DNA of 64,000 nt from Candidatus Bathyarchaeota archaeon (GCA_963767735.1 CAVYES010000005.1:512001-576000); one strand, 5' to 3'; shown: positions 9,061 to 39,305, counted from the stretch's first letter. Translations and numbers: made by a program. The notes: generated from the letters alone by a model not told the origin.

Positions 9061-9218
9061 ACTCCGAAACGGAAAGCAACATTTTTCAACGCCATTAAAC
9101 AGAAAGAAACGCTGTTAAACAGAAAGAAACGCTGCTAAACGGAAAAGAACGCAGAAAAACGCAACCTGCAAATGTTCCTAACCCTGAATCAAAAAAGCAG
9201 ACAGAAACGCAAAGAACA
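9061..9218 (+). repeat. Array-plus-core element, copy A
   Basis: Ten consecutive 10-mers ending in AAC (9061-9160), then core CAACCTGCAAATGTTCCTAACCCTGAATCAAAAAAGCAG...AGAACA (9162-9218). Confidence 0.8.
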
Positions 9219-9302
9219 AAATCTTAGACCAAGACAAACTAAAAGCGCACTGAGAAACATTTAAGAAATAAGAAACAACCTGTAAAGAGCCCGAGACGGC
9301 TG

Positions 9303-9959
9303 ATGAAGCAAATCGGATTGAAAGTGAAAGGCATTTTCTTGGATTTAGACGGCACAATAGTTGACTCCAGAGAAGCCTACAAGGAAGCTGCAAGAATAGC
9401 TTGTGAAGCCGTCGGGCAAAAACCGCTAGCTGACAAAGCTGCCTTTGAGATTCCTAGAAGGCTCGAGCAGGGTCTCACAATCAGCGACATCGTAAAGGGC
9501 AACTCTAAAAAATTTCTAAGCATATACTTTGAAACTTACTACTCCATTACCCGAGAAAAAACCAGACTTATACCTAATGTTTCCGAAACGCTTGAAAGCT
9601 TATCGGCAAAAACCAAACTTGCCCTAATAACCATGCGGTATGCCCCCAAACAAGCCATAATAGCAGAGCTAGAGTGCTTTGGCATATCAAAATATTTCAC
9701 TCATGTTGTAACCGCGCTGGATACTTCTAAGCCAAAGCCATCTCCTGATGCGTTAATTGCATGTGTCAAAGCCTTAGATGTTGAAATATGTGACTGTATC
9801 ATTGCAGGGGACTCGGTTAACGATGTTCGCGCTGGGAAAGCCGCGGGCGCGAGAACTGTGGCAGTTTTATCTGGGCTTTTTCAATGCGAAGAGCTACTCA
9901 AAGAACGCCCCGATTTAATTTTAAACGATGTCAATGCTCTTCCAAAGTTTATCAAATAA
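9303..9959 (+). CDS. HAD-superfamily hydrolase (phosphoglycolate phosphatase-like)
   Basis: DLDGT, KPSP and GDSVND motifs. Confidence 0.9.
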   Translation: MKQIGLKVKGIFLDLDGTIVDSREAYKEAARIACEAVGQKPLADKAAFEIPRRLEQGLTISDIVKGNSKKFLSIYFETYYSITREKTRLIPNVSETLESLSAKTKLALITMRYAPKQAIIAELECFGISKYFTHVVTALDTSKPKPSPDALIACVKALDVEICDCIIAGDSVNDVRAGKAAGARTVAVLSGLFQCEELLKERPDLILNDVNALPKFIK

Positions 9960-10058
9960 CTCCTATGGCATATTTCAGAATTTGAAATATTGCTAGAACC
10001 TGAATAGCCAGTTATATTCCTCAATAAAAATAAGGTTTAATAAAAACCTCAATCTAAC

Positions 10059-10709
10059 ATGAATATGGAGAAGGGCTTCGGAGCGGGAGTCAGTATGAAC
10101 TTTGTTGAATTGATGATAGGAGAGAAATTGAAAGAAGCGGATTCAGCCCTGGACGTTATGGGGTCAGACCGCAAAGTTTTGCAGGTTGCTTGCCAAGACT
10201 TTACGAATTTTCTTAAATTTCATTGGAACTTGATGGGGAAAGAAGCATGCCAATGCGAACTAGTTGAGCGGTTGGAGAACATTTTCAAGGAAGATTCATC
10301 GGAGCTAGACGCGTTCTTAACTGTTTGGATTGGCATCTGGTTCAAAAAATGGAAGGAACGAGTCAAGCTTCTCATAGGTGACCAGAACGCTAGCCGATGG
10401 AATAAAGTTTCAAAAACTCTCGCTAACGCTGAACCTCTATGGAAGAAAATTGAGCAAAAGCAAGAACTTCAAGAGCTCATAGTCTCCACGCTGGTTAAAA
10501 ACGGAGAAATCTGCGGAACCGACATCTTATCCGAGAATCTGCTGAAGATGGAGCTTGGAGAAGGCTGCGTTCAAAATCTAAGCGACAGAGACAGAGTTTT
10601 TACTGTAGTTAATGAGGCGTTGAGGAAAGCTCGTGAGATGGCTCAAAGCAAAGGTCCGCTAATCTTTGTCAAGGTCGACAAAGGCTACTACAGTTCAGGA
10701 ACCGAGTAA
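10059..10709 (+). CDS. Hypothetical protein
   Basis: 216-aa ORF with protein-like composition; no motif recognised. Confidence 0.65.
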   Translation: MNMEKGFGAGVSMNFVELMIGEKLKEADSALDVMGSDRKVLQVACQDFTNFLKFHWNLMGKEACQCELVERLENIFKEDSSELDAFLTVWIGIWFKKWKERVKLLIGDQNASRWNKVSKTLANAEPLWKKIEQKQELQELIVSTLVKNGEICGTDILSENLLKMELGEGCVQNLSDRDRVFTVVNEALRKAREMAQSKGPLIFVKVDKGYYSSGTE

Positions 10710-10773
10710 GCGTTCAGCTTACTTTAGTTTTTTTATAAAGCAGATTTATTAGCTGTCAGCCTTACTGTTTTTT

Positions 10774-11331
10774 ATGGCTCGTTTTGTTATTTTCCTTCGG
10801 GCAATTAATGTTGGCGGCCACACTGTCGCTAAGGCAAAGTTGCAAGAAGCCTTCATCTGCTTAGGATACCAAAACGTTTCCACATTCAAACAAAGCGGCA
10901 ATGTAATCCTTGAAACCGACGAGCCGGATCCAACTGAAATTAAGAGAAATGTAGAGAAAACTCTTCGCAACTTGTTGGGCTACGATGTGGCGGCGTTTGT
11001 ACGCACAATCCCGCAGATCAAAGCAATAGTTAATCTTGAACCCTTCAAGGGCTATGATAAAGAAGGCGCCAGTTTTCTGGTAACATTTCTTGAAGATGCT
11101 CCCTCGGAGTTTCCACTCAAGTTGCCCCTGATTATTCCGAAATCGACGGCGCAGATAATTTCAGTGAAAGGTAACGAGGTTTTCAATGTGACTCATGGCG
11201 GCGGTGAGGGCGGGCTGCCTAACCCTTTTCTTGAGTCCAAGCTAAAACTGAAGGCAACCACCCGAAATATGAACACAATTGCTCAAATAGTCGAAAAGTT
11301 CTCTGAAAAAGATCAGAAAGGAAAGGGCTGA
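10774..11331 (+). CDS. DUF1697 family protein
   Basis: FLRAINVGG, QSGNV and ATTRN motifs. Confidence 0.88.
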   Translation: MARFVIFLRAINVGGHTVAKAKLQEAFICLGYQNVSTFKQSGNVILETDEPDPTEIKRNVEKTLRNLLGYDVAAFVRTIPQIKAIVNLEPFKGYDKEGASFLVTFLEDAPSEFPLKLPLIIPKSTAQIISVKGNEVFNVTHGGGEGGLPNPFLESKLKLKATTRNMNTIAQIVEKFSEKDQKGKG

Positions 11332-11406
11332 GAAAAGTTTGGAAGAACAGCTTAACAGTCTTTCTTAAAGAATGAAATCAATAATAGAGGTACTGGAGCT
11401 TGAGGA

Positions 11407-11604
11407 TTAGACGACTCTGACTCTTTGGAGAGTCTTTCGCATCCAAGTGTAATGTCTCATGGTTGTAGTTTCGCCGTATCCGCATGCTGCGCAACGTTTA
11501 TGTCGTACGTGGTATGCGCGTCTTCCGCAGCGCCTGCATTTTATGTGAACGGTTTTGCCTTGGCGCTTGCCCATTGATGGTGTGCCTTTTCCCACGGCGG
11601 TCAC
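11407..11604 (-). CDS. rpl37e: 50S ribosomal protein L37e
   Basis: GKGTPSMGKR..HIKCRRCGRRAYH..CAACGYG. Confidence 0.96.
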   Translation of the reverse strand: MTAVGKGTPSMGKRQGKTVHIKCRRCGRRAYHVRHKRCAACGYGETTTMRHYTWMRKTLQRVRVV

Positions 11605-11828
11605 CTAGGCGAAGGCGAAATAAGGACTACGTTGTCTCCTCGGACGATTATTAGTCCCAGTCTCTTTTGGTTTTCAATGTTTGTGGTGTCTTCTGTCTCT
11701 TCTAAAACTAGGTTTAGATGCTGGTCGAAACCCTTCAGTCTTCCTCTGAGGCTTTTTCCGCCTTTGAGTCGTACAAGTACGATTTTGCTGAGGTTCTGCT
11801 CAAGAATTTCGGTTGTCATTTCGCTCAT
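11601..11828 (-). CDS. Sm-like (LSm) RNA-binding protein
   Basis: GRLKGFDQHLNLVL...IIVRGDNV; conserved LSm-L37e pair. Confidence 0.95.
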   Translation of the reverse strand: MSEMTTEILEQNLSKIVLVRLKGGKSLRGRLKGFDQHLNLVLEETEDTTNIENQKRLGLIIVRGDNVVLISPSPR

Positions 11829-12068
11829 TTGGAATCCTCACGAATCTATATCTCTTCTATACTCGAACTCTCCACATTTAAACCTTATCTAGCATGAGCG
11901 GCGTTCTATTAGTTTGCTTAGGTTAAGTTAACTTTGAGCTTGAACGCGGTTGTCGAACTTTATTGATTTAAAGGTGCGTCTAACGGGTTGCTTAAAGATC
12001 AAGTGCATTGGTGATTGCGCTTTTTATCAGGTATTTTTTTCCGATCCTAAGTACGTTTAGCGAACTTC

Positions 12069-12310
12069 TATAAAGCTTGCTTTGGGTTGTTTTTTTGGTT
12101 TAGGGTTTGAATTGTTTGCAGGTTGCGTACACAGAAGGACACAGAAGGATAAGGAAGGGCAAGCGAGGCAAAAAAAGTATTTCATGCAGAACTGTTGCGT
12201 CGCCACTGATCTGGTTGTTTTGGGCTGCTTTTTTGATTCAGGACTTGGATTGTTTGCAGGTTGAGTTAATAAAAGTCGGTAAAAGTCGAATAAAGTTGAT
12301 AAAGGAGTCG
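12069..12310 (-). repeat. Two tandem array-plus-core elements (copies B and C)
   Basis: Minus-strand cores at 12125-12069 and 12263-12207; 10-mer arrays at 12126-12170 (acagaaggac-type) and 12264-12310 (aaaagtcggt-type). Confidence 0.8.
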
Positions 12311-12447
12311 GAGGAAGGCGCTTGAGATGAGTACGGGTGAGCGCCTGGATAAAACCGTTTAACCGGCTCCACAAAAAGCAGGGGTATAATGCACAATGTA
12401 GCGCAAAGTTAAATTTAGGTCTGCAGTGACTATGAGCGAGACTCCCT

Positions 12448-12951
12448 ATGCCCTCAAAGCAGCGAAGATACGCCTTAAAAACAAAGGATGCAAAACAAGT
12501 TTTAACTGAAGCCCAAGCAAAACTCAAACTTGACCTTGACGCGCTATTCGGCTCCAAAGCCGTCGTTGAAGTTGTTGAATCCGACGTAGGCGAAGTTTAC
12601 CTCATCGGCGAAAAACCGCTGCTCTTCAAAGCCCAAGACAAGGTCCTGCCGACCCTCCACTTCACCGAGTTCACCGCGAAGGCTCCGAAAATCGTGGTTG
12701 ACATGGGCGCCGTCCCATACGTCTGCAAGGGCGCAACCGTGATGGCTCCAGGCATCGTACGCATCGAAGGAGAATTCGGCAAAGGCGACCTCGTTCTCGT
12801 GGTGGACGTGAAGTTTGGCAAAGCCCTGGCGCTGGGCGAAAGCCTCATGGACGCGGAAACTGGCCGAACGATAAAGAAAGGACCCGTAGTTAAAACGCTG
12901 CATTACGTCAGCGACAAAATCTGGGACTACACCAAAACAATAACTGAATAA
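12448..12951 (+). CDS. PUA-domain RNA-binding protein (DUF1947/MCT-1-like)
   Basis: VVDMGAVPYVCKGATVMAPGI...HYVSDKIW. Confidence 0.9.
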   Translation: MPSKQRRYALKTKDAKQVLTEAQAKLKLDLDALFGSKAVVEVVESDVGEVYLIGEKPLLFKAQDKVLPTLHFTEFTAKAPKIVVDMGAVPYVCKGATVMAPGIVRIEGEFGKGDLVLVVDVKFGKALALGESLMDAETGRTIKKGPVVKTLHYVSDKIWDYTKTITE

Positions 12952-13027
12952 CCGTTAACTCTCTTTTTGTAGGAAGTTTTAAGATCGTAGTACATTAATT
13001 TTATAGTAAGGCAATATTACTATTACC

Positions 13028-13248
13028 ATGCAAACTGTTAAAGTTACTAGAAAAGGCCAAACCACTATTCCCGCCAAAATCAGGAAAAGCCTTGGAATAA
13101 AAGAAGGCGATACTTTAGAAGTCGAAAAAATGGACGAAATGGTTACTTTCAAAAGAGTGCCAAAATAGAAACCTCGCTGGAATTTTCCTGGAGATCAGAA
13201 ATCGCTGAGTTGAAGAAACAATTAGATAAATTACGCGAGGAATACTAA
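13028..13248 (+). pseudogene. AbrB/MazE-type antitoxin, frameshifted
   Basis: MQTVKVTRKGQTTIPAKIRKSLGIKEGD; stop at 13166-13168; C-terminus (LDKLREEY) in another frame. Confidence 0.75.
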
Positions 13249-13249
13249 T

Positions 13250-13513
13250 CTTTGAGGGAAGTGCTAAGACACACGCTTTTTTTTGGAGCACCTTTATTCG
13301 CAAGACCCAAAAATGCGTCAGAAAACCATCCAAAAAATGAATGAGTTAAAGCAAGTCGCCAATGGGATTATCCCAACTATAGTCCTCCTCGAAACAGTTC
13401 AATTTGTTTGCTCAAAAAGGGGTAAAGAAAGCGCAGAAATGACATATCGCTCAATCAATGCTAGCGGGTTAAAAATAGAGGGTTTGAATTCTTTAATCGC
13501 TAAGGAATCTTAA
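13250..13513 (+). pseudogene. Truncated PIN/VapC toxin
   Basis: Broken DTRFF start, IPTIVLLE PIN motif; stops before the C-terminal catalytic Asp residues. Confidence 0.7.
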
Positions 13514-13705
13514 GACCCGTTCCTAAATGAACATTCGTTAGAATTGCTAAAAACACGTAGCCTAGTGGATTTTATTTTTGGCAAAATAAGAAGAAAGATT
13601 AACCCTTGGCTATGATTGCTAATGTTTATTGGGCTTTGACGTACCTTTGTGGGTTCGTATGTTCTCCTTGCTCCTCCAGTTAAGCACTCTTCATGCTTTT
13701 TACTT

Positions 13706-15201
<1,496 letters not shown>

Positions 15202-15275
15202 TATGCACTCCAAATTGAATCTGCGGATCTTGTTGTTTTTTGTGTGGTACGTTCGTACACTTATTCGCACGATTT

Positions 15276-15330
15276 GTGCCTAACTGGATTTGGAGGGAAA
15301 AACATTCCACTCAATACGTCAAAGCCCAAT
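15276..15330 (-). other. 5' arm of the 16S processing stem (pairs with 13628-13687)
   Basis: TACGTCAAAGCCCAAT is the exact reverse complement of ATTGGGCTTTGACGTA; GTGCCTAACTGGA pairs with TCCAGTTAAGCAC. Confidence 0.85.
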
Positions 15331-15502
15331 TCAGACCTAACTGAGCAATTAGTCAGGTCCACATTCGTGTCCCCGCAATTGGAGGCCAACTCCGTCATTC
15401 CTGCAAGGCAAACGCCGTTACGGTAGGGGTTGAGCCGCCGCCATGTGAAAATTGCGGGGCTAGCAATTATAGCTGAATTCTATCAGAAGCGCATTAATCC
15501 GA

Positions 15503-15509
15503 TATAAAC
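15503..15509 (-). promoter_or_regulatory. Probable TATA box of the 16S promoter
   Basis: Minus-strand GAAATG-TTTATAT just upstream of the structured leader. Confidence 0.5.
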
Positions 15510-15811
15510 ATTTCTTAAACATTAAAATAAACATTATCCCGTGAACCGTTGACCATCATAAGCCCATTGTGTTCATGCATTTAAGTGAATTTTTGCTTAG
15601 CCGCTAAAAAATGGCTTAAAGTCTTAGGTATAAATAGGCTACCAGCCTTTACTGCCGCTGCTTTTCAAATGCGCTTCTGAGCAGTAGATAAAGCGAAAAA
15701 AACTCTTAAGACTATGTGACTGCACACAACCAACAATGAAACTTTAAATTTCGCCAAAAGATGTTGGCGTCGATATTTTTAAAATTTAAGCTTGCTTTTT
15801 TAGGAGAGCAT

Positions 15812-16063
15812 CTACTTTATGACTTTTGCTTCTGCCGTTGTGCCGCCAACCTGAGTTATCTTTATTTTCACATGCTCTCCCGGTTTTGCGTCGGCAACAT
15901 GTATGACTAAACCCTGAACTCTAGCCATGGCTTCCCCTTTTGGGTTACATTCCACAATATCTACTTCTAATTCTTCGCCCACTGCAACAGGGCACCGTTT
16001 AAAACCCTTGCCATGACCCTGCCTTCCCTCGTAACTACCACCTTGCCTTTTTGAATAACCCAA
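15812..16063 (-). CDS. Single TRAM-domain RNA-binding protein
   Basis: PVAVGEELEVDI...KGEAMARVQGLVIHV...PGEHVKIKI. Confidence 0.88.
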   Translation of the reverse strand: MGYSKRQGGSYEGRQGHGKGFKRCPVAVGEELEVDIVECNPKGEAMARVQGLVIHVADAKPGEHVKIKITQVGGTTAEAKVIK

Positions 16064-16186
16064 AATAACCTACGCTCTTTTTGCTAAAAATATCTAATAT
16101 AAACATCAAGTTTCTGATGTTTAAGCGTTTTCACCAAACATTCACTCTAACCATTGCAGCCTCAGCTTTTCCGATTTCTCAAAAAA

Positions 16187-17203
16187 TTAGATGTTGACGT
16201 GAAATGCCCAGTGCATGTACGCTTTAAAATCCCATGAAAGCGCCAAAGAAGGCTCAACATAGCAGTGAAGGCTGCATTTCCTGCAGTTTTTTATTTTTTC
16301 CCAGTCAAACTCTGTAACCGCACTTTTAATGTCAGTTTCAAAGATGGAGACGCTACTTGCATAATCATTGTGGACGTAGCAAGGCAAAACCACTTTCCCG
16401 TTCGGGTCAACGTTAACCATCGCCCACGGTTTGCATTGCCAGTTTTTTTCTTTAGCTATAATTCTAAAATACCCAATAGAATTCATAATAGGATAGCCTT
16501 TTCTTTTTAATTCAATGAGCTGTTTCGCAACCTTTTCGATTTCACCGGCTTGAGGCGCAGATGCGTTGGCATTGCAGTACTCGTGAGCTACCGACAACAC
16601 TATTTTTACACCTAAATCCTTTGCCAATTTCACAGTATCTTCCACGTCATGAACGTTATCGCCCATTATGGTCATGTTGATTGTTACAGAAACCTTCCCT
16701 TTGGATGCTGTTATGCCCTCTATCGCTCTTTTGAAACAACCGTTAACTCCTCTTATTTGGTCATGAGTTTTCTCCAAACCATCTAATGAAACAAATACAA
16801 TGCCGTTGATGTATGGTGCTATTTCATCTATCCTTGATTTGAGGAGCGTACCATTGGTGATAAGGCTTGTATGCAGAGGCAGAGAACGAGAATAAGCCAG
16901 AATTTCAGGCAAGTCTTTTCTCAAAAGCGGCTCTCCCCCTTCAAACCCAACACCGCAAACACCCGAATCGAACATTTGCTTCAGAATCTGTTTTTCCTTT
17001 TGGGTGCTTAAATTTTCGCTGGATCGTTTCCAGAAGGGGCACATTTTACATTTAAGGTTACAGTTATAAGTTAACTTATGTCCACTAAAAACTGGCGCTT
17101 TTCCTCCGAACGAGTTTAAAATTAATCCATGGTATAGTCTAAGACCTATCCTTAATGTTTCCTGATAGCTGTGTGCGCCGTTTTTCAAAAATTCAATCTC
17201 CAT
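16187..17203 (-). CDS. Radical SAM protein with SPASM/twitch-like C-terminus
   Basis: CNLKCKMC, GGEPLL, C-terminal CKPW..PC..CRKCSLHC. Confidence 0.9.
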   Translation of the reverse strand: MEIEFLKNGAHSYQETLRIGLRLYHGLILNSFGGKAPVFSGHKLTYNCNLKCKMCPFWKRSSENLSTQKEKQILKQMFDSGVCGVGFEGGEPLLRKDLPEILAYSRSLPLHTSLITNGTLLKSRIDEIAPYINGIVFVSLDGLEKTHDQIRGVNGCFKRAIEGITASKGKVSVTINMTIMGDNVHDVEDTVKLAKDLGVKIVLSVAHEYCNANASAPQAGEIEKVAKQLIELKRKGYPIMNSIGYFRIIAKEKNWQCKPWAMVNVDPNGKVVLPCYVHNDYASSVSIFETDIKSAVTEFDWEKIKNCRKCSLHCYVEPSLALSWDFKAYMHWAFHVNI

Positions 17204-17417
17204 TAAAATTTATGGTATTCGCCCGTGTGTTGCATCGGAGATTGCATTTGTAAGTCAATTTATGTCCGCAAAACAAAGGGGTCTTAACGTTAAATAAGTT
17301 TGAGACAAACCCACGATAATTTCTCATACCCAGCAAAAAATTCTCTATGTCATGGTGAATATTTTTTTCTTCCAACGAATAGTTGAGAACTCTCCCCATC
17401 CTCCAAGAAGTTTGCAC
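17193..17417 (-). pseudogene. Truncated paralogous radical SAM N-terminus
   Basis: PLFCGHKLTYKCNLRC matches PVFSGHKLTYNCNLKC of the next gene, then breaks off. Confidence 0.65.
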
Positions 17418-17491
17418 TCTGCGAATTCAAATAGATAAAAACAAGTACTTTTCTTTTTTGTTTTGGAGAAAAAGAGAATTTTGCTCTCTTA

Positions 17492-17638
17492 TTATTTTTT
17501 CTTGAGTTCTTTCTTTATTCCCTTTCCAACGTCTTCAACGGCTTTAGCGCCTTTCTTGAGGCCTTTACCGACTGCCTCTCCAGTTTTTTCAGCAGCATTC
17601 TCAACTTTTTTCTCAACCTTTTTCTTTTCGCCAGGCAT
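17492..17638 (-). CDS. 48-aa Lys/Glu-rich LEA-like micro-protein (not in ORF track)
   Basis: MPGEKKKVEKKVENAAEKTGEAVGKGLKKGAKAVEDVGKGIKKELKKK; SD GAGGTGA. Confidence 0.75.
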   Translation of the reverse strand: MPGEKKKVEKKVENAAEKTGEAVGKGLKKGAKAVEDVGKGIKKELKKK

Positions 17639-17894
17639 TCATATCACCTCTATATAGAGGTCGTTTATTGCCGAATTAAAGTTTGTGACTGTGTTGGCAC
17701 GCCGATTTTGTATATCGACCAAGGTTTTGACTGCGAAATTACATTTGCAAGGAAGAAATCGAGCTTTATGGCAAAATGCAGCTGGAAAGTCTGCGCTTAA
17801 TGCGGTTAAACTCTTTGCATCGGTTATTCGGAACTTGAGTCGGGGCAATAGTTTATAAACTAAAAAATTTTAATTATTATTTAGGTGAAGTTTT

Positions 17895-18359: not shown

Positions 18360-18529
18360 GGCACTAAAAGAAAAAAGACAATAATCAGATAGCGTAAGCT
18401 TTGAGTTAGAATTGAATTGTCCAGCCGTACCTTTGAACATAGCAGGCGCTCTGTTGCTGTGTGCCTACAGCCACACAAGTTAAATAGCCACTTGCAAACT
18501 TCAGTGACTTAATTGTGGAGTTGTAGATT

Positions 18530-25704: not shown

Positions 25705-25797
25705 CCTTTTTTCTTTTTTGTTAGCAAAAAACTCATAAGTCTATGTTTTATTGGCTGACTGGTCACAATTCATCTCGCAAAATAGGGGGTAAAGTAT

Positions 25798-27021
25798 TTG
25801 GATGTTAACAAAATTCGAGAAGACTTTCCGATTCTAAAGCGTAAAATAAACGACAATACTTTAGTGTATTTTGACAATGCGGCAACTTCACAAAAACCAA
25901 TACAAGTAATCAACGCTATAGTGGATTTCTACGAGAACCATAACGCCAATACCGGCAGAGCCGTCCATACGCTTTCTCAAGAAGCAACAGAGATGCAAAA
26001 AGAAGCCCGCGAAAAAGTCGCACACTTCATAAACGCCGCAGATAACGAAGTTGTTTTTGTTAGGGGCACCACCGAAGCAATCAATTTAGTTGCTTACTCG
26101 CTGGGTCTGCATACGCTGAAAAAAGGTGATGAAATCTTGATTTCAATGATGGAGCACCATAGCAACATTGTGCCCTGGGATATAATTTCGCGATTAAGCG
26201 GTTTAAAAGTCAAATATGTGAACGTTAACGATGACGGTTCGCTGAATTATGAAGACTTTGAAAGCAAATTATCCAATAAAACTAAAATTGTTTCTTTAAC
26301 TCATGTTTCAAACGTAACCGGCGCAATTAACTACATTAAAAAAATAGCTCGGGCGGCACATGATCATGGCGCATTAATGTTTGTCGATGGGGCTCAGTCT
26401 GTTCCACACTTGCCCGTTGATGTTAAAGATTTAGATATCGATTTTTTAGCGTTCTCTGGTCATAAAATGCTTGGACCAACAGGAATAGGCGTACTTTACG
26501 GCAAAGCGGAGATTCTTGAAAAGATGGCTCCTTTCCAAGGTGGTGGAAGCATGATAAGCGATGTTTCTTTCAGCAAGGAACAAGGGCAATGTAATATTGC
26601 TTTTAATAGTTTGCCTGGGAAATTTGAGGCTGGTACGCCCGATATTTCCGGTATTGTAGGTTTAGGCGCTGCCGTTAAATATCTTGAGCAAATAGGGCAA
26701 AAGGAAGTCTTCGAGCATGAGAGACTTTTAACTAATTACGCAATTAAGAGAATGCGTGAACTCAAGAACGTTGTTATTTACGGGCATAGTGATGAATCCT
26801 TGAGCAGTGGAATTATTCCATTCAACGTTGAAGGCTTATCATCTCACGATGTTGCCCTCTTTCTTGACAACTACGGCATAGCCATTAGAAGCGGTTTTCA
26901 CTGTGCACAGCCGCTGCATCAAATTTTCAAGTTGCAGTCAACTGCACGGGCAAGTTTCTACATATACAACACACTTGAGGAGATTGACCGTTTTGCGGAT
27001 ATTTTAAGAAAAGTTGTATAA
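25798..27021 (+). CDS. sufS: Cysteine desulfurase, SufS type
   Basis: YFDNAATSQKP, FSGHKMLGP, RSGFHCAQP. Confidence 0.95.
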   Translation: MDVNKIREDFPILKRKINDNTLVYFDNAATSQKPIQVINAIVDFYENHNANTGRAVHTLSQEATEMQKEAREKVAHFINAADNEVVFVRGTTEAINLVAYSLGLHTLKKGDEILISMMEHHSNIVPWDIISRLSGLKVKYVNVNDDGSLNYEDFESKLSNKTKIVSLTHVSNVTGAINYIKKIARAAHDHGALMFVDGAQSVPHLPVDVKDLDIDFLAFSGHKMLGPTGIGVLYGKAEILEKMAPFQGGGSMISDVSFSKEQGQCNIAFNSLPGKFEAGTPDISGIVGLGAAVKYLEQIGQKEVFEHERLLTNYAIKRMRELKNVVIYGHSDESLSSGIIPFNVEGLSSHDVALFLDNYGIAIRSGFHCAQPLHQIFKLQSTARASFYIYNTLEEIDRFADILRKVV

Positions 27022-27065
27022 CGTGGGTTCAATATTTTTCTATATATAATTTTCTTTTTATTTTT

Positions 27066-27654
27066 TTATTGATTTCTCGCTTTTAATTGTTGTATTTCAT
27101 TGTATATTTCGTTCCAGTTGTAAACTCGTTTTGTTAGGTTTTTAACGTTTAATGTTTTGTTCCATGGTTGATCGTAAACTAGAACATTTTTGACTTTTTG
27201 CGTCCATCCTAATGCTTCTTCAAGCGAATCTTCCACGATCAGATCTAATGGGTCAACTTTTGCAAGATATTTTTCACCCATATTTAAAAGGTGCAGTTGA
27301 GTGTATGGTACGCCTTTTTCTTTTAGCCAAGACTGCGTTATGTCTCGGAGAATGGTCGTATCGGCTTGTTAATAGATAGATGTTATGGCCTTCCCGGCTT
27401 AGTCGTTCTCTAAGGTTTCTTTGGCGCCTGAAGTTTAACGGTAAATCTTTCTTTAAAACTTCAATTATCAGTTGCTTTCCTTCAGATTTGGTTATTCCTA
27501 AAACAATGTTTAAGTCAAAACAGTAAATGTCTGTTTTCTTTAAAGCTAAACCGTAATTCTTCTTTATCGTTTCCAGAAGCGCTTGCGAGAAATCCGCGAT
27601 TACTCCATCAATGTCAAAGCCTAAATTCATCTTCCGTTTCCCATTTGAAACCAT
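27066..27654 (-). CDS. 5'(3')-deoxyribonucleotidase-like HAD (NT5C), multiply frameshifted
   Basis: FDIDGV, LLTSR, IVEDS and DQPWN motifs spread across frames. Confidence 0.75.
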
Positions 27655-27877
27655 TCTGATTCTGTCCTTTCTAGGAAAAATAATCCAGATTGAACAGGAG
27701 TAACGTAAATAGGTTCAGTTAGCATCACGCAAAAGTTAATGGAGGAATTACGGTTTTTCTTCTGAGACGAGATTGTTTCGAATAGTTTTGCGTGCTTTCC
27801 AATTTTTCAGTCAGCATAAACTTTGCCTTCGTTAGGAATGTTCTGTCGCTTTTCTGTCGTAGCGCTTTTGGGATCAA

Positions 27878-28432
27878 CTATAGCATTCTCAATAAATCGG
27901 CTTTAGTGATGATGCCTATCACATGTCCCTTTTTCGCCACTAAAACCGCTTGGTAAGTTTGTAGTAGACTGGAAATCAATGATAGGGGCGCATCTTCCGA
28001 AACCTGGGGAAAAGCTTCTTCCATGATGTCTTCTGTGGGCAGGTTGGAAATTTGGTCTAAATCTTTGCCAGCCAGAATCTGCCTTAGAATGGTTTTTTCC
28101 GAAACACTTCCTACTGACTGTTTACCGTTAAACACGGGAATTTGGGAGTAACCATGCTCTTTCATTAGTTTAACAACCTTTAAGATTGGCTCATCTTTTT
28201 GTATGCTGATAATTTCGTTTGGTACGATTTTTCGTTCTTGGATTTTCGTTTTGGCTTCTAGCCGTTCAAGGATGTCGAAGATTGTTTTAACTTTGGTGTA
28301 GGATGAATCGATTGTTCCTGCTTCCAGCTTGGCGATTAGGGATTGGCTTACGCCTGCCATTTTGGCTAGTTCGGACTGATTTATGCCGAGTTGTCTTCTG
28401 CGTTTGGCAATGTCTTCTAGGGTTGGGAACAT
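27878..28432 (-). CDS. XRE-HTH plus CBS-domain transcriptional regulator
   Basis: INQSELAKMAGVSQSLIAKLE, YSQIPV, GIITKADLL. Confidence 0.92.
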   Translation of the reverse strand: MFPTLEDIAKRRRQLGINQSELAKMAGVSQSLIAKLEAGTIDSSYTKVKTIFDILERLEAKTKIQERKIVPNEIISIQKDEPILKVVKLMKEHGYSQIPVFNGKQSVGSVSEKTILRQILAGKDLDQISNLPTEDIMEEAFPQVSEDAPLSLISSLLQTYQAVLVAKKGHVIGIITKADLLRML

Positions 28433-28458
28433 GTTTTATGTAGTTGGCTTGATGAGTT

Positions 28459-28508
28459 AATATTCTTTTTGGAATATTTCTTGCAAAAAGGCATATAACG
28501 GCGTTATT
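28459..28508. promoter_or_regulatory. Two palindromic operators between the regulator and metY
   Basis: AATATTC-N6-GAATATT (28459-28478) and TATAACGGCGTTATT (28494-28508). Confidence 0.6.
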
Positions 28509-28519
28509 GGATGTCTTGA

Positions 28520-29851
<1,332 letters not shown>

Positions 29852-29860
29852 ACTTTCATT

Positions 29861-31009
29861 TTGGAGGCAATACATTTAGCAACAATTAACCAAACACTTC
29901 AAGACTCTGAAACAAAGCACTTTACATTCGCTAACCCACCGGAGGAACTGGTTCTTGAATCAGGCGAGAAACTTGGTCCAATAACGCTTGCCTACGAAAC
30001 TTACGGCGAACTCAATGATCAAAAATCAAATGCGATTTTGGTGCTTCATGCGCTCAGCGGAGACGCCCATGCCGCTGGAGTCAACGGCTGGTGGGACAGC
30101 TTAATTGGTCCAGGTAAAGGCTTAGATACAAACAAGTATTTTGTAATCTGCTCCAACATAATCGGCGGCTGCCAAGGCTCAACAGGTCCATCTTCCACTA
30201 ACCCGAAAACGGGCAAACCCTACGCCACCGATTTTCCCATAGTAACTATTGGCGATATGGTGAACGCTCAAGTTCATCTAATTGACCATTTAGGCATAGA
30301 GAAACTTCTCTCGGTAATCGGCGGCTCCATGGGCGGCATGCAAGTTCTCCAATGGATGGTCACCTACCCAGAAAAAATACGGTCTGCAATCCCAATTGCA
30401 ACGACGTTGAAGCATACGCCACAGCAGATAGCGTTCAACGAGGTTGGCCGCCAAGCAATCATGGCTGATCCAGATTGGAAGAAGGGGCATTATTACGGCT
30501 CTAAGGTTCCATCGAAAGGCTTAGCTGTGGCACGAATGATTGGGCACATAACCTACATGAGTGATGCTTCCATGGCTGAAAAGTTCGGCAGGCGCCTCAA
30601 AGAAGACAAAGAACCCTTCAAGTTCGGCGCAGAATTTGAGGTTGAAGGCTACTTGCATTATCGAGGCGACAACTTTGTCAAACGATTCGACGCCAACTCA
30701 TACCTCTACATCACCAAAGCCATCGACTACTTCAACATCCTCAACGGAAACAAAAACCTCGGTAACATTTTCGCTGGGCTAAAGTCAAAAGTGCTCGTAA
30801 TATCCTTCAAATCGGACTGGCTGTACCCATCCTATCAGTCTCAAGAAATTATGAAAGCCTGCAAACTTGCAGGAGTCGACACTACCTACTGTGACATAAA
30901 CTCAACTTATGGGCACGACGCATTCCTTTTAGAAACAGAGCAAGAAACTCAATTAATCAAACATTTCCTGAACACGGCTTCAAATGGACATAACGGCGGT
31001 GCACAATGA
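29861..31009 (+). CDS. metX: Homoserine O-acetyltransferase
   Basis: HALSGD, GGSMGGM, RFDANSY, GHDAFL. Confidence 0.95.
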
Positions 31010-31599
31010 AGCAGGCACCAGTCAAAGCAGAGCACAAAATCATCCTAAACTGGATTAACAAAGACGCTTCAGTGCTGGACCTTGGATGCGGCGACGGAGA
31101 ACTTTTAGCACGCCTCATAAACGAAAAGCAGGTACATGCGCAGGGAATAGAACTAAGTGAAACAGCAATTCAACGATGCGTCGCCCAAGGATTAAGCGTT
31201 TTTCAACAAGACATAGATACAGGTCTCTCTGAATACGCCGACAACTCATTCGACTACGTCATACTAAACCAGACACTACAGCAAGTGAAAAAACCAGACT
31301 TAGCCCTAAAAGAGGCCTTGCGAGTTGGAAAAAAGGTTATTGTTGGCTTTCCCAATTTCGTGCAGGCCTCAGCCAGATTCCAAATATTCTTCAAAGGAAG
31401 AGTCCCAGTAACAAAAGCGCTGCCTTACGAGTGGTATGACACACCAAACTTGCATTTTTTAGGTATTGCCGACTTCAAGGGTTACTGCAAAAAAAGAAAC
31501 ATACGCATCTCAGACTCAGCATTTATCAGAAAAAATAGAAAAATCAAGCTTCTTCCAAATTTGTTTGCAGAAATTGGGCTGTTTCTTTTATCGTCATAA
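31006..31599 (+). CDS. metW: Methionine biosynthesis protein MetW
   Basis: [21 protein letters not shown]; overlaps the metX stop. Confidence 0.93.
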
Positions 31600-31904
31600 G
31601 AAAAATATTTTTTTAAACTATATTTCTTAAAATTGGATATTGGTAGCTGTTTTGCTATACATTCTCAGTGAATACTCTCTTTTTAGCTGTTTATTCTATC
31701 GTATAAATTCTAAGTTCCGTTTCGGAGTTTAATGTGACATTTAAAAGTGTATAGTTTAAAATTTTCTATCTATTGTAGGTCATAAAGCATTGATTCTTCT
31801 TAATTTTTAGTTAAAGTGACTTTAGAATACATGCTATTTTTGCAAGATAACAGCGATTCCTTCAGCCTAATGTATAGTTATTCTCTGAAATACTAAATTT
31901 AAAG

Positions 31905-32228
31905 GTGACTTCAACTCTTTATAGAAACTTTACCCTCATGTTTCGCTTCATTAGGCAAATGTGTAGAAAGCTTAAATCTAAATTAAACCTAATGGAAGCA
32001 GGGGCTGAAAATCTAATGGATAATGATGTTTTATTGTCAGTAACTGTAAGCCGGAAAAAAGATGAAATTGTTTACAGCGTTGACCGCGCAAGTAACTTAA
32101 CAAACAAAGAACTTGAATACTATCTTAAAGAGATAATTGAAGGCATATGCAAGTGGAAACCGGGCGTTTGCGAAGAAACAGTACAAAACTTTAAAGGAAT
32201 AATCAGGAAAAGAAAAACAGACAAATAA
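31905..32228 (+). CDS. Hypothetical protein (true start probably near 32016)
   Basis: ORF; 3' part is protein-like. Confidence 0.45.
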   Translation: MTSTLYRNFTLMFRFIRQMCRKLKSKLNLMEAGAENLMDNDVLLSVTVSRKKDEIVYSVDRASNLTNKELEYYLKEIIEGICKWKPGVCEETVQNFKGIIRKRKTDK

Positions 32229-32353
32229 GATTTAAAACTGACTTAAACTCTACCTTAATTTCGCTGTGTTCGCAAATGGTCACTTTATGATTTAGATGCC
32301 AGTGGATAAGTAATTATGCTTCACCAGACATTTTTCTAAACGTAACTTTTTAA

Positions 32354-32629
32354 CTATCCATCGCGCATAAGAAAAAGTGGTTTAAGGGCTTCTTCTTTCA
32401 TAATTTTCTTGATTGCAGCAACCTCGTCAAAGTTCTCTCCACTCGAGGCAGGCTCGTGAATCTCTAAATCTTTCAGAATAAGATGAATTTCATTATCCGT
32501 ACATTCGACGCGACATACCCTATAATAGTTGTCTTCTGCAACGTCGGACATTTCTTTGGATGTTGAACTGGCTTCAATGCCTTTTGATACATTTGTCTCG
32601 GTTTTCTTTTTCTCACTCAACACCTGCAT
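32354..32629 (-). CDS. Hypothetical protein
   Basis: SD GAGGCG; 91-aa ORF. Confidence 0.55.
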   Translation of the reverse strand: MQVLSEKKKTETNVSKGIEASSTSKEMSDVAEDNYYRVCRVECTDNEIHLILKDLEIHEPASSGENFDEVAAIKKIMKEEALKPLFLMRDG

Positions 32630-33194
32630 AAACGTCGCCTCTTACTAGCCCTGCATAATGATTTAAGCATATGTGATTGTATGATACCAGTCACAAATTG
32701 AAGACCATTCTACATTTAGCCAATTCAAAGAGCGCTAAACAGCTAAACAACACCAAAACTCGCCAGAAGTAAATGCGCATGACACGTTCATGCACGCGCT
32801 AATCCAAAATGTTTGATGTCGGTATACGTTTTTAATGTTACAAAAAAAGAGAAATTTTCGAGGCCTGATGATAGTACTATTTAAGCGTCGCCAAGAATCG
32901 ATTTTTAGAGGGGTTCTGGAGCGCAGAGATTTTCTGCTTTGGCAGCTGTACGCATGCATCCTTTGCAAATATATTTCGCGTTTTTCACTAGAGGCTTTAT
33001 CTTTTCAATTGGCACTTTATCCTCTACCATCTTGCAGAGGTGTTTTTCATGTCCAGGATGAGGTTGAGCTTTTGACAAAACTTACACCTAAACAACTCTG
33101 GTGAAATAATGCTAAATATACTATTGTGATTGTGCTTAAACAGCTACAGCTTCAACTCTTCATTAATTTGTTCTTTTTCTTATGATATTAGACG

Positions 33195-33311
33195 CTATTT
33201 CTCTTTTTGCCTTTTTAAATCAGATTCTTGTTTTCTTAATGCTGCCTTAGCATCGCCTAGTGTAACAACTTCAATGGTGTTTCCAGCGATAACAACTTTA
33301 AAAGCTACCAT
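33195..33311 (-). CDS. 38-aa micro-protein
   Basis: MVAFKVVIAGNTIEVVTLGDAKAALRKQESDLKRQKEK. Confidence 0.45.
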   Translation of the reverse strand: MVAFKVVIAGNTIEVVTLGDAKAALRKQESDLKRQKEK

Positions 33312-33894
33312 TTCTAACCCCATTTTTATTCAACTACCGTGCTTGTAGGACTAACGATGTATGTCCACTCGAGTGCAGCCCATTCGTCAATCTTGACATT
33401 GGTTTTCTTGAGGTTCCTTTTTTTGCATTGCGAAGGTTCTGTAAGATCCGATTTTGTCATATTCGGTAAGCTACACATGATTCGCCATTGGGAGCTGTAA
33501 TCTATTATATTTTATGAACTACTAATCCACTATTGAAACTGCTGACACAACCTTTTCTATGTCATCTGAGTTTCGTTTGTACAGGATGGTACATGAAAAT
33601 TCGGGTTCTTCCATCCTACTAATAGTCTATTTTCAATTCAGACTCAACTGCACTTGCTTGCTTAATCCTTGAATCATCCTTTGCCTTAAGGATATGGAAG
33701 CTTTCCATCACACATAGAACATTTTAACTGTAACTTCTTTTGCAAGTACATTGGTTCAATCCAACACATATAGCAAAAGTAAATTTGGCATTTGGGCAGT
33801 TTAACTTTCGATTGTTACATTGTTGCTACATATTGAAACGTCATAATCTATATACCATCCAAGTACTGTACTTTACGGTGAGAGATAATTCTAA

Positions 33895-34035
33895 GTGACC
33901 GAATGCCCTTACTGTCATAAAGAAGTTTCAAAACCTCAAAAGTCATTTGAGAACAGGTTTTTCCTAATCGAAGCCTACACGTGTGATGAATGCAAGGGCA
34001 AATTTAAGATAGCAAAAGAATTTCCAATATACTGA
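33895..34035 (+). CDS. 46-aa zinc-ribbon micro-protein, related to 22424-22648
   Basis: MTECPYCHKEVSKPQKSFENRFFLIEAYTCDECKGKFKIAKEFPIY; SD GGTGA. Confidence 0.7.
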   Translation: MTECPYCHKEVSKPQKSFENRFFLIEAYTCDECKGKFKIAKEFPIY

Positions 34036-34201
34036 ACTGAAAATTTACAGGTTCAAGCGCACACAGGTAAAGCAGAAGTGAATGTTAGATTTTGAAATCA
34101 AAAAGCCCTGAATTGTCAAGGTACGGCAATCCGCGCCTCGTTTAGCTTCTACAAAAGCTTAAAAGTCATAAATAATTTAATTCTATTTTAGCGATTATAA
34201 A

Positions 34202-34546
34202 TTGAAGATACCTGATCTTCCCTCAGCCAAGGCTGTTTCAACAAAGCGCCTTAGAAGTGTTTGGAAGAGGATTTCAGACAAGCCTTTGCCAGATGTTTAT
34301 GCCTTCACGTTGGAAGAAAAAGAGTTTTTATCAAACTTGGAACTGCTGCAGAAGAACAAGGGAATTATAGATACAAGAGTTAGCGAGTATGGACTAAAGG
34401 TTCCAAACCAGTTTATTGAGGCTTGCACGTTTGAGTTCAAGGGACACTTAATAATCTTTGTTAAACAAACAGTTCCTCTTGTTGATGCCTTGGAACACGA
34501 GTTAAGACATGTGGCATCATGGAATCTCAAAAACAAAGAGCCTTAG
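34202..34546 (+). CDS. Small HExxH (zincin-like) protein
   Basis: LEHELRHV near the C-terminus. Confidence 0.55.
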   Translation: MKIPDLPSAKAVSTKRLRSVWKRISDKPLPDVYAFTLEEKEFLSNLELLQKNKGIIDTRVSEYGLKVPNQFIEACTFEFKGHLIIFVKQTVPLVDALEHELRHVASWNLKNKEP

Positions 34547-34604
34547 ACATGGCAAGAGAGAATAATATATTCCATATTTATGTTCTCATTGCAACTAGTT
34601 CTCC

Positions 34605-35153
34605 AAAAAAGCAACCCAAAACAACCAGAACAATAATTAAAAAAAACTAAAAACTCGAAGATCCACACGCCTTAAAAAAACTAATCAGCAAACTTTTCGT
34701 CACTTTCCTTTACTTTTCCTTACTTTTCGTTACTTTCTGTTACTTTTCCTTACTCAACCTTCAAACGTGTTAAAGCCTAAACAACAAGAACGCATAGCGT
34801 CCGAAATTTGCCGCAAAACTACTTGGAGCGACTCTTCAATAATCCGGCACAATTTGGCACAAATTTACACAAAAATGCACACAACCTGCAAACGAATTGA
34901 GCCCTAAACGAAAAAAGCAACCCAAAACAACCAGAACAGTCAAGCAGCACTTACAAACGTTATATTCTCTTCAAAAAGGCGCAAAAGGACACAGAAATAC
35001 ATTCTGCTACACTTCGCTACGTTCTGCTACATTTGTGTACGCGATTATTTGCGATTAAACGCGATTATTCTCGATTATTTGCGATTATTCTAGATTCTAC
35101 CTGCAAGCAATTTAAGCCCTAAACGAAAAAATCAACCCAAAACACAAATTTTC
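34605..35153 (+). repeat. Cluster of four array-plus-core elements (copies D-G)
   Basis: Cores at 34605-34632 (3' half), 34755, 34882-34938 and 35097-35153; 10-mer arrays at 34691-34750, 34841-34880 and 34981-35096. Confidence 0.85.
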
Positions 35154-39301: not shown

Positions 39302-39305
39302 AGCT

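Follow-up and report, generated by a model that had tools for sequence, protein, structure and literature searches.

The window, by which we mean the whole 64,000-nt stretch of DNA analysed, carries copies of a modular repeat beside the upstream DNA of an HAD hydrolase gene (element A), beside a PUA-domain gene (modules B and C), and where the 3' ends of convergent genes face each other (modules E-G). Each module is a minisatellite with a 10-bp period, followed directly on its 3' side by a conserved core. The core reads CAACCTGCAAAC, about 17 variable bases, and AAAAAAGCAACCCAAAAC, with a total length of about 55 bp. The arrays typically comprise 6-8 units (median length 63 bp), and the generic unit, nnAC(t)TTTynn, places the A and C of an AC dinucleotide at positions -3 and -2 relative to the core. 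Modules measure 95-190 bp and occur singly or in same-strand runs of 2-5, with composites of up to about 600 bp. The following features were located, all coordinates being positions in the window; 9162, 12125, and 12263 correspond to 521162, 524125, and 524263 on contig C5, and 34755, 34882, and 35097 to 546755, 546882, and 547097.

8931-8939, plus strand: left target-site duplication of element A, 9 bp, ATGAGGAAC (read from the DNA; empty-site comparison)
8940-9249, plus strand: element A, a non-coding 310-bp insertion that is made up of leader, array, core, and tail and has weak inverted ends (absent in six relatives)
9088-9161, plus strand: element A array, period 10 with a 20-bp super-period (Tandem Repeats Finder, 9088-9145 with period 20 and 9137-9164 with period 10)
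9162-9216, plus strand: element A core (nhmmer, E = 1.2e-09)
9250-9258, plus strand: right target-site duplication of element A, 9 bp, CTGAGAAAC (read from the DNA; empty-site comparison)
12071-12125, minus strand: module B core (nhmmer, E = 3e-08)
12126-12165, minus strand: module B array, gtccttctgt units with CC in the AC register (Tandem Repeats Finder, 12129-12149, and sequence)
12209-12263, minus strand: module C core (nhmmer, E = 1.4e-09)
12264-12310, minus strand: module C array, gacttttatt units (Tandem Repeats Finder, 12270-12304)
34605-34632, plus strand: isolated 3' half of a core, with neither array nor 5' half (identity to 34911-34938)
34692-34754, plus strand: module E array, 6.3 copies of ttacttttcc units with a 30-bp super-period (Tandem Repeats Finder)
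34755-34809, plus strand: module E core, 3' half degenerate (nhmmer, E = 2.3e-08; alignment)
34846-34881, plus strand: module F array, gcacaaattt units (read from the sequence)
34882-34938, plus strand: module F core (nhmmer, E = 1.6e-09)
34998-35096, plus strand: module G double array, tacattctgc units and then gcgattattt units (Tandem Repeats Finder, 34998-35033 and 35039-35096)
35097-35150, plus strand: module G core (nhmmer, E = 9.4e-10)

A sequence-only reading of the window had placed six cores at 9162 (+), 12125 (-), 12263 (-), 34755 (+), 34882 (+), and 35097 (+), and nhmmer recovered every one of them. Arrays with period 10 or 20 were likewise returned by Tandem Repeats Finder, over 9088-9164 and the further intervals given above, and the 28-bp core half that the reading had placed at 34605 was identical to the corresponding part of module F. 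Its 5' core stub at 9276 turned out to be native upstream DNA of the HAD hydrolase gene, which is also present in six relatives lacking the element.

Copy number, one-sidedness, phase and distribution

The host, a soil archaeon, has a genome of 3.04 Mb (G000), in which 79 cores were found using nhmmer and 108 using a covariance model. Over the 80 bp upstream of the 79 cores, the mean self-identity at lag 10 was 0.564, compared with 0.257 in random 80-mers. The autocorrelation check proposed in the sequence-only reading was run, and 69 of the 79 upstream stretches exceeded the 99th percentile of 5000 random 80-mers. By the same measure, 16/79 downstream stretches (where the array of the following module lies) and 2/79 stretches further upstream were periodic. 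The period was exactly 10, with signals at lags 10, 20, and 30, whereas lags 9 and 11 gave background values. Across the whole genome 56 regions were strongly 10-bp periodic; 55 of them adjoin a scored core on its 5' side, and the remaining one adjoins a degenerate core. The association between periodic array and core is far above chance.

The AC register noticed in the window held across the genome. In 72 non-redundant upstream regions, the frequencies of A and C were 0.85 and 0.82 at -3 and -2, 0.72 and 0.82 at -13 and -12, and 0.62 and 0.61 at -53 and -52, with T-tracts running in phase with the AC. The copies had also been called intergenic, and 70/79 cores lay outside any ORF of at least 100 aa by crude ORF calls. 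The copies are a dispersed non-coding repeat, present about 100 times in the genome, with a conserved core and phased 10-base units.

Of 24 further genomes belonging to this Bathyarchaeia genus, 16 had the same layout and 8 had no copies; copy number within the genus ranges from 0 to 121. The order's other genera were represented by 16 genomes, and the element was found in none of them. Among 28 cores from 15 other genomes, AC stood at -3 in 24 and C at -2 in all 28; the corresponding figures in genome G013 were 34 and 40 of 43 cores, and off-phase AC was seen in neither set (0/28 and 0/43). Across 16 other genomes the phased AC, and in particular the C at -2, -12, and -22, is maintained as the remainder of the unit changes. 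At the locus of modules B and C, one element with accttttt-type units is found in G046, G004, and G018 versus two in G000.

Arrays were initially taken to be locus-specific, which did not survive comparison across the genome, in that the same arrays recur at distant loci. The 89 arrays fall into 17 unit groups, 10 of which have at least two members (26, 14, 11, 8 and so on). Dispersed copies have whole arrays in common, unit for unit, and unchanged arrays have been copied to at least six loci. The module G array has near-identical counterparts at C6:446480, C3:122333, C4:8471, and C7:338524, and the family of the module F array also occurs at C6:446285, C5:421507, and further loci. Paralogues differ in length by exactly 10, 20, or 30 bp, at distal, internal, or proximal positions and with no fixed polarity. 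An internal 30 bp was lost from the array at C9:19469, a 20-bp difference lies close to the distal end at C2:167066, and the copies at C7:18441 and C3:30219 have one extra core-adjacent unit relative to the canonical gcgattattt array. One subfamily includes copies with two different core middles. Arrays would be inherited along with the element and changed in whole units through slippage or unequal exchange, and the core that copies have in common would allow recombination between them, producing such mosaics. Gene conversion rather than selection could contribute much to the conservation of the core.

Insertion polymorphism, ends, duplications and enzymes

Element A is missing from the orthologous intergenic region of six relatives with the same gene order (G046, G018, G004, G052, G043, and G013), where the empty site is ATAAGAAAC or similar. 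Each copy of its flanking duplication matches the empty site at 7/9 positions, and the two match each other at 7/9. The similarity between its termini (GCG... and ...GTTTGT) was judged by eye only. Elsewhere in the genome, inverted-end pairs of the CTCTGTCTCTAA type were flanked by 9-bp direct repeats in 5/5 cases (2 perfect, 2 at 8/9, and 1 at 7/9). Inverted ends were recognised on the right of 11 and on the left of 10 of 54 module clusters, with both ends in 8, one only in 5, and none in 41; the chance rate is about 1-1.5%. The lack of a recognisable right end in 43/54 clusters and of a left end in 44/54 counts against our main reading of the family. At the loci of relatives, an inverted end was found at only 1 of 41 cores. 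No target-site duplication was seen around copies without inverted ends, and a single 9-bp flanking repeat, T-rich, was seen in G013.

The modules had been said to match no CRISPR, REP, or MITE layout. As regards MITEs the statement is wrong for part of the family, given the inverted ends in 8/54 clusters, the 9-bp duplications, and the insertion of element A. The copies are small, non-coding, multi-copy, and dispersed, with 9-bp duplication and presence/absence polymorphism, as MITEs are. True MITEs make up one part of the family, whereas most clusters have no recognisable inverted ends.

An IS5-family insertion sequence of 1113 bp (DDE_Tnp_1/DUF772) with related ends resides in the genome in 5 copies. 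In two aligned copies of one composite, a 111-bp arm matches the right end of this insertion sequence at 82-84% identity, and the same arm is visible by eye in all four copies of that composite. By sequence similarity, the MITEs of this genome appear to be related to the resident insertion sequence, which itself contains neither array nor core. Searches for its transposase at E <= 1e-20 found nothing in G002, G009, or G020, with 35-39 cores each, and G013, with 121 cores, has just a partial match of 43% identity. Where they can be read, target-site duplications are 9 bp, not 10, so the arrays, for which stacked target-site duplications had been one suggestion, are not stacked duplications made by that transposase.

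A co-distributed enzyme was sought. Y1_Tnp does co-occur with the modules, being present in 7/9 genomes with at least 12 cores versus 2/15 genomes with fewer, where both are fragments. The sole Y1 element found, IS200-like and 549 bp long, has nothing in common with core or array in its ends or its sequence. The serine recombinase (Resolvase domain, PF00239) had no match in G000 or G013 and was present in G006, G016, and G017, all of which are core-less; TnpB was not found in G000. No partner protein for the modules was found in these searches, which included the IS5-family transposase, serine recombinase, TnpB, and the Y1 element.

Known systems, competing explanations and the favoured reading

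The BrickBuilt MITE of Porphyromonas gingivalis has 23-nt units, 19 copies, and demonstrated promoter activity (Klein et al. 2015, PMC4596501). It resembles our modules in being a small intergenic multi-copy element with leader, head-to-tail minisatellite, tail, small inverted ends, variable unit number, and narrow host range. Unlike that bacterial element, the modules have an archaeal host, units of exactly 10 bp, about 100 copies, and some 10 different recurring unit sequences that share a single phase relative to a conserved 55-bp core, and in most copies no inverted ends can be recognised. In Streptococcus pneumoniae, BOX elements (boxA, a variable number of boxB units of about 45 bp, and boxC, with a predicted RNA fold) are likewise modular dispersed repeats in which a variable count of tandem units lies between conserved modules. 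Here, however, the unit is one helical turn, and no consensus structure was found on either strand.

Duplications of 9 bp are also made by the IS903 group of the IS5 family. The MITEs resemble IS5-derived ones in their TG(G/C)YYTGTCYC-type inverted ends, 9-bp duplications, and the 111-bp arm, but their array-core cargo, which is conserved more strongly than the ends, is not represented in the insertion sequence and turns up in many genomes in which that transposase could not be found. In enterobacteria, REPs are palindromic hairpins whose movement depends on RAYT (Y1) transposases; BIME/REP elements form intergenic mosaics, and some of them are known binding sites of nucleoid proteins. Our modules are similarly intergenic mosaics of few motif types recombined in varied orders, yet they contain no palindrome; derivation from REP/RAYT or IS200/IS605 was rejected on the lack of consensus structure and on the unrelated IS200-like ends. 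A CRISPR array was rejected in that the 10-bp units run head to tail without spacers and cores lie 150-215 bp apart with arrays between them. A plasmid partition centromere of the ParR/parC type was rejected as well: such centromeres consist of 10-11-bp repeats in tandem, adjoining a promoter in the neighbourhood of par genes, and number one or few per replicon versus about 100 chromosomal copies here.

In IS1535, the TnpA protein binds to four direct repeats of 9 bp that are in helical phase, spreading along about 70 bp of DNA (Chen et al. 2018, PMC6188088). That report describes end repeats of the IS607 family as nucleating a cooperative filament of recombinase dimers of about 70 bp, IS1535 as having neither inverted ends nor duplications, and the family as requiring the serine recombinase TnpA (PMC6188088). 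Like the family so described, our modules have helically phased short direct repeats and mostly neither inverted ends nor duplications, but some copies have inverted ends with 9-bp duplications. An IS607-family element or derivative was rejected, since Resolvase-domain genes were found in neither G000 nor G013 and the search of G000 for TnpB gave nothing. We take the likeness as one of working manner and not as evidence of membership.

The modules might instead be used by the host, the arrays as curved or histone-positioning DNA and the core as a factor site, weak promoter, or terminator, and might persist by tuning genes or chromatin. In length, 41/89 arrays measure 60-79 bp, about the footprint of an archaeal histone tetramer; two histone-fold proteins are encoded in the genome, and T-tracts run in the AC phase. 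The median predicted bend was 41 degrees, compared with 25.5 in random DNA, and 18/89 arrays exceeded the random 99th percentile. The enrichment was not general, with 30/89 above the 95th percentile and two-thirds of the arrays showing no strong curvature in the model, which also counts against our main reading. At 49/79 modules the downstream gene has the same orientation, but the frequency of core motifs upstream of genes is just 0.6-1.9 times that in the whole genome, and modules E-G lie between convergent 3' ends. A nearly invariant T6 run on the reverse strand of the core has the form of archaeal termination signals, while the core middle is not the canonical TATA box of this genome. Occupation of the same PUA-domain gene site in G000, G046, G004, and G018 would fit a host function, against which stand the patchy distribution within one genus (0 copies in 8/24 genomes) and the absence of element A from six relatives. 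We consider this explanation unlikely.

A selfish or neutral mosaic, whose period and AC would descend from one ancestral array kept uniform by slippage and gene conversion, with no binding role, is likewise unlikely. The generic unit beneath all the different unit groups, arrays that travel with the element, mosaic cores indicating frequent recombination between copies, and the failure to find a partner protein would all suit it. However, units have been wholly turned over (gcgattattt, gcacaaatcc, aggatatttt) with period and phase still exact in 16 other genomes. Drift and slippage should also have given arrays of 9, 11, or 12 bp, which the background values at lags 9 and 11 do not reveal, and no periodic region (0/56) lies away from a core.

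The main proposal of the sequence-only reading, an activity that, at each locus separately, repeatedly duplicates 10 bp a set distance away from the core, found no support in arrays that are shared and without polarity. Its mechanism, a core-anchored nickase, site-specific recombinase, or templated polymerase adding units singly at the core edge, is very improbable. Arrays do lie beside cores only, on one side only and in fixed register with the core edge, and one subfamily has the extra core-adjacent unit (C7:18441 and C3:30219). Against it are the internal and distal length differences (C9:19469 and C2:167066), the 20- and 30-bp super-periods, arrays stable enough to be copied unchanged to several loci, and insertion duplications of 9 bp. 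Small RNA genes, with array and core transcribed and the core as functional RNA or its promoter, can be dismissed almost entirely: the core shows strong A+C enrichment on the element strand and AAAAAGC-like motifs lie directly upstream of some tRNA genes, but RNAalifold gave no pairs on either strand, the sole Rfam match in the window was 16S rRNA, which also led us to reject a structured Rfam RNA, and T-runs, which would be expected to stop archaeal RNA polymerase, lie within most arrays.

Together, our results indicate that these copies probably constitute a family of small, non-coding, mobile, recombining repeat modules restricted to the genus, some of which travel inside MITEs that have inverted ends and target duplications of 9 bp. 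Among the options first raised for the arrays, we favour binding of a protein at helical pitch, because phased AC is kept across 16 genomes while units turn over. We tentatively suggest that array and core might form a one-sided protein-loading platform, which would explain the persistence of the strict period and AC phase. The protein would nucleate at the core and then occupy successive turns on one face of the helix, and the platform would serve the element's own mobilisation, as IS607-family ends recruit a recombinase filament.

Copy number, anatomy and periodicity of the module

The six cores claimed in the sequence-only reading were all recovered in the window, and Tandem Repeats Finder placed a period-10 or period-20 array against the 5' side of each, as had also been claimed. 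The isolated 3' half of a core was confirmed as well; the '5' stub' reported at 9276 turned out to be native upstream sequence, which is found in relatives too. The genes flanking the window modules are ordinary. A 16S rRNA gene was the sole Rfam match in the window, and Rfam placed no 23S or tRNA gene next to it within the window.

Modules and genes in the window
9162 (+), core of element A
12125 (-), core of module B
12263 (-), core of module C
34605-34632, isolated 3' half of a core, every base equal to 34911-34938
34755 (+), core of module E
34882 (+), core of module F
35097 (+), core of module G
13706-15201 (-), 16S rRNA gene, complete, archaeal, 1478.6 bits
Flanking gene, PhoU/AbrB-type regulator
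Flanking gene, HAD hydrolase
Flanking gene, PUA-domain protein
Flanking gene, Fe-S protein

A profile made from the six window cores found 79 cores at E < 0.01 in the host genome (3.04 Mb, 10 contigs, 43% G+C), and a covariance model derived from these hits gave 108 matches. The cores aligned nearly gap-free (consensus nACnCAACCTGCAAACGATTCAAGCCCTAAACCAAAAAAGCAACCCAAAACA), with conservation of at least 90% at CAACCTGCAA, an A6 run and GCA-AC, and about 17 variable bases in between. They stood singly or in same-strand runs of two or three, forming 54 clusters; runs of up to five were seen in the related genome G013.

The genome scan and autocorrelation proposed in the sequence-only reading were carried out, and lag-10 self-identity upstream of cores was well above background. 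Mean self-identity over the 80 bp upstream was 0.564, 0.536 and 0.513 at lags 10, 20 and 30, against 0.257 for random 80-mers, and lags 9 and 11 were near background. Of the 79 upstream stretches, 69 scored above the 99th percentile of a set of 5000 random 80-mers; so did 16 of 79 downstream stretches, where the array of the following module in the cluster lies, and 2 of 79 stretches further upstream. When the test was reversed over the entire host genome, 55 of 56 strongly 10-bp-periodic regions adjoined the 5' side of a scored core, and the remaining one adjoined a core too degenerate for scoring. Based on the genome-wide counts and the reverse test, the 10-bp arrays beside cores are real and highly non-random. 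An assembly artefact was ruled out by the same layout in 16 other independent genome bins, and array-core sequence in contigs of four metagenome runs also argued against it. Metagenome contigs placed on window 30001-40000 were short pieces only, with joints that connect the arrays and cores of paralogous copies; since these joints are between paralogues, they do not address array-length polymorphism in that interval.

With positions counted upstream from the core start, A and C recurred at -3/-2, -13/-12 and so on to -53/-52 in 72 non-redundant upstream regions, at frequencies of 0.85/0.82 declining to 0.62/0.61, and a T-rich run followed each AC (T frequency 0.6-0.8 in the same regions). The phased AC and the T-rich run define the generic unit nnAC(t)TTTynn. 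Median array length was 63 bp, with 41 of 89 arrays measuring 60-79 bp. The general features across arrays are the exact period and the phased AC.

Array inheritance and phase in related genomes

The description of the arrays as locus-specific did not hold, in that the same arrays recur unit for unit at distant loci. The gcgattattt array of window module G was also found at C6:446480, C3:122333, C4:8471 and C7:338524 (C numbers denote contigs, C5 of the host genome holding the window), and the unit order ttacttttcc, gcacaaatcc, gcgattattt of modules E, F and G was repeated at C6:446130-446480. The 89 arrays fell into 17 unit groups, ten of them with at least two members. Length differences between paralogues were exact multiples of 10 bp: aggatatttt paralogues had 2, 3 or 4 units, paralogues of the gacttttttt family differed by 20 bp, the array at C9:19469 had lost 30 bp internally, and those at C7:18441 and C3:30219 had one extra proximal unit. 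Array length changed without fixed polarity, and super-periods of 20 and 30 bp were common. This pattern fits slippage or unequal exchange within an inherited minisatellite. An activity that duplicates 10 bp at a fixed distance from the core, locus by locus, had been suggested and is unlikely, because neither the shared arrays nor the changes without polarity fit an enzyme adding units at the core edge.

Outside the host genome, pattern matches came from Candidatus Bathyarchaeota or Bathyarchaeia bins, with a few bacterial matches at about chance level. Of 24 other genomes from the genus, 16 gave core matches in the model search (1-121 each), as against none of 16 genomes from other genera of the order. 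Upstream DNA was periodic at 21 of 28 cores in 15 other genomes and at 42 of 43 in G013; the corresponding counts were 24/28 and 34/43 for AC at -3, and 28/28 and 40/43 for C at -2. AC half a turn out of phase was found at none of the cores in either set (0/28 and 0/43). Units varied between species (for example gacttttttt, aacgcagaac, tttacgttaa and cccagacnnn), and at least 17 species-level genomes keep the phase while the unit sequence changes. A link to viruses was rejected, the single IMG/VR pattern match being GC-rich, without an array and without a score in the model.

Several neighbourhoods were recorded during the survey. In the relative G001, a three-module cluster (locus L237, C3:1173500-1183500 of that genome) lay between a Y-family DNA polymerase gene, which was split into two ORFs and apparently frameshifted, and a transposase gene that was rejected as a partner, being only a 181-aa remnant. 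The same three modules were found in G022 near a nitroreductase and a queC-like gene. Of 33 predicted tRNA genes in the host genome, four were within about 0.8 kb of a module, where about one was expected from the near-module share of the genome (by eye).

Neighbouring tRNA gene and module positions in the host genome
C8:94593/94782
C5:149219/149569
C5:73425/74218
C4:206224/206549

Element ends, mobility and transposase candidates

At the PhoU-HAD intergenic region, about 310 bp of the host genome was missing in the orthologues of G046, G018, G004, G052, G043 and G013. Element A, bounded at window 8940-9249 by junction reading, was flanked by ATGAGGAAC and CTGAGAAAC, and the relatives had a single ATAAGAAAC-like 9-mer there. 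The locus of modules B and C held two elements in the host genome versus one of another unit type in G046, G004 and G018. Five host elements were bounded by inverted CTCTGTCTCTAA-type ends with 9-bp direct repeats just outside in all five, two of them perfect (TTGTTCAGG and CTAAATTGG), two pairs agreeing at 8/9 positions and one at 7/9. A search with four end variants and at most two mismatches found the right end in 11 of the 54 host clusters, the left end in 10 and both in 8 (chance about 1-1.5%), with no recognisable end in 41; the right end lay 105-110 bp past the start of the last core in 9 of 11 clusters. In the relatives' loci a recognisable end was present at 1 of 41 cores. The repeated unit of G013 extended from the array through the core into a tail of about 40 bp, which closed with C(C/T)GTCAATAAC; one flanking 9-bp repeat only was seen there, and it was T-rich.

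A 1113-bp IS5-family insertion sequence was present in five host copies (C4:173551-174664 and four others; locus L254), with a 290-aa product matching DDE_Tnp_1 and DUF772 and ends of GCGCGCTG(G/C)CTTGTCCC. In two aligned composite copies, the leftmost 111 bp matched the right end of this insertion sequence at 82-84% identity, the left end of the insertion sequence lay inverted just before the array, and by eye the 111-bp arm was common to all four composite copies. A search of 57 genus genomes located the transposase in 18; it gave nothing in G002, G009 and G020, with 35-39 cores each, and in G013, with 121 cores, just one partial match at 43% identity. Part of the family is true MITEs, but since most clusters have no recognisable ends and the transposase was not found in several core-rich genomes, the inverted-end vehicle is one carrier among others. 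The general unit of the family is the array-core module. Two different core middles occurred among copies of a single subfamily, so that recombination between cores helps make mosaics; it may also help keep the core uniform. As separate observations, three of the five copies of the insertion sequence had the palindrome AGCGCGCT (8 bp) in their ends, the remaining two having a near variant of it, and more than 30 further end-like sites (GCGCGC-TGSYTTGTCCC) were dispersed in the host genome.

Among other candidates, Y1 transposase genes were found in 7 of 9 genomes with at least 12 cores versus 2 of 15 with fewer, counts that overstate the link since these genomes are kin. An IS200-like element of 549 bp had six host copies (C4:15076-15624 and five others; loci L301-L306); it encodes a Y1 transposase (133-144 aa) and has a hairpin at either end. 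It had no sequence in common with the modules; the Y1 transposase was rejected as partner, and its co-occurrence was treated as kinship or general insertion-sequence richness. Tyrosine recombinase gene counts were unrelated to core copy number, Mutator/IS256 (PF00872) matches were weak or unrelated, and ISL3 (PF01610) had no match among 25 genomes. A three-copy 'end-like' match was set aside, since it proved to be a duplicated region of 2.8 kb that carries a RadA-like gene. This repeat, of at least 2.8 kb, was internal at C5:134814-137636 and at contig starts at C5:1-2818 and C6:1-2816 (98-99% identity), and represents a large duplication or else a point where the assembly broke.

Further features of the window lay near the modules. 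The sequence at 8648-8940, just upstream of element A, was conserved at the orthologous position in relatives. Roughly its middle 100-130 bp had 70-75% identity to several further sites in nearly every genus genome, and its small ORFs had no clear Pfam match. About 600 bp at 11331-11935 had no long ORF and no Rfam match; G004, G046 and G018 have this stretch at about 90% identity, contiguous with the genes next to it, and small genes or an undescribed RNA may lie in it. At 33000-37500, the genes flanking modules E, F and G had no DNA-level match or orthologue in five related genomes, where the cores alone matched; this may be a strain-specific region.

Possible roles and known systems

One-sided 10-bp periodicity with kept phase is the signature expected of proteins stacked on one face of the helix, and a putative helical-pitch binding array, which the sequence-only reading had offered as its alternative, is the best current reading. 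The arrays may also be a chromatin-positioning sequence, given their 60-79-bp length mode and the two histone-fold genes of the host genome. In a wedge model, the predicted bend had a median of 41 degrees for arrays versus 25.5-27.5 for random, intergenic and shuffled sequence; of the 89 arrays, 30 exceeded the 95th percentile of random sequence and 18 the 99th. Array curvature is thus enriched, not general, and universal intrinsic curvature was rejected because only about one third of arrays scored high in this model. We consider it improbable, though worth stating, that the module is a portable one-sided 'ruler', in which a core-anchored protein would read AC at each turn for six to eight turns as part of an undescribed archaeal machine that builds or remodels a positioned histone or nucleoprotein particle, or adds and removes whole turns of DNA. 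A canonical promoter was not supported, since core words were not enriched upstream of host genes, where the enriched words were classic TATA boxes (TTATATA, TTAAATA and similar). A structured RNA was dismissed, with no consensus structure on either strand and no Rfam match to the modules in the window.

The closest published mechanism, alike in principle only, is the left end of IS1535 of the IS607 family, where recombinase dimers, nucleated by four 9-bp direct repeats in helical phase, bind cooperatively and spread over about 70 bp; as described there, elements of the family lack inverted ends and do not duplicate their target (PMC6188088). Membership of the IS607 family was rejected, as a Resolvase-domain gene was not found in the host genome or G013, and TnpB was not found in the host genome. 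BOX and the family here are both non-coding repeats, dispersed and modular, that contain a minisatellite. The same likeness holds for BrickBuilt (PMC4596501). In contrast to both, each array unit here measures one helical turn exactly, arrays lie strictly on one side of the core, the unit sequence has been turned over many times with period and phase to the conserved core unchanged, and the host is an uncultured archaeal genus. A full-text literature search combining Bathyarchaeia with repeat-element and MITE terms did not turn up any description of elements like these.

The Bathyarchaeia are an abundant, uncultured group, of whose mobile DNA almost nothing is known to our knowledge. The clean one-sided phased rule makes the element a well-defined bait with which to look for a transposition or chromatin factor in an unculturable lineage. 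If it were merely a MITE with an internal minisatellite, it would still be, within the literature searched, a counterpart in archaea to BOX and BrickBuilt that has not been described before, and it would also be useful as a strain marker for the genus in soil and peat. If the 'ruler' reading were true, the element would be more than a parasite, namely mobile DNA that organises archaeal chromatin.
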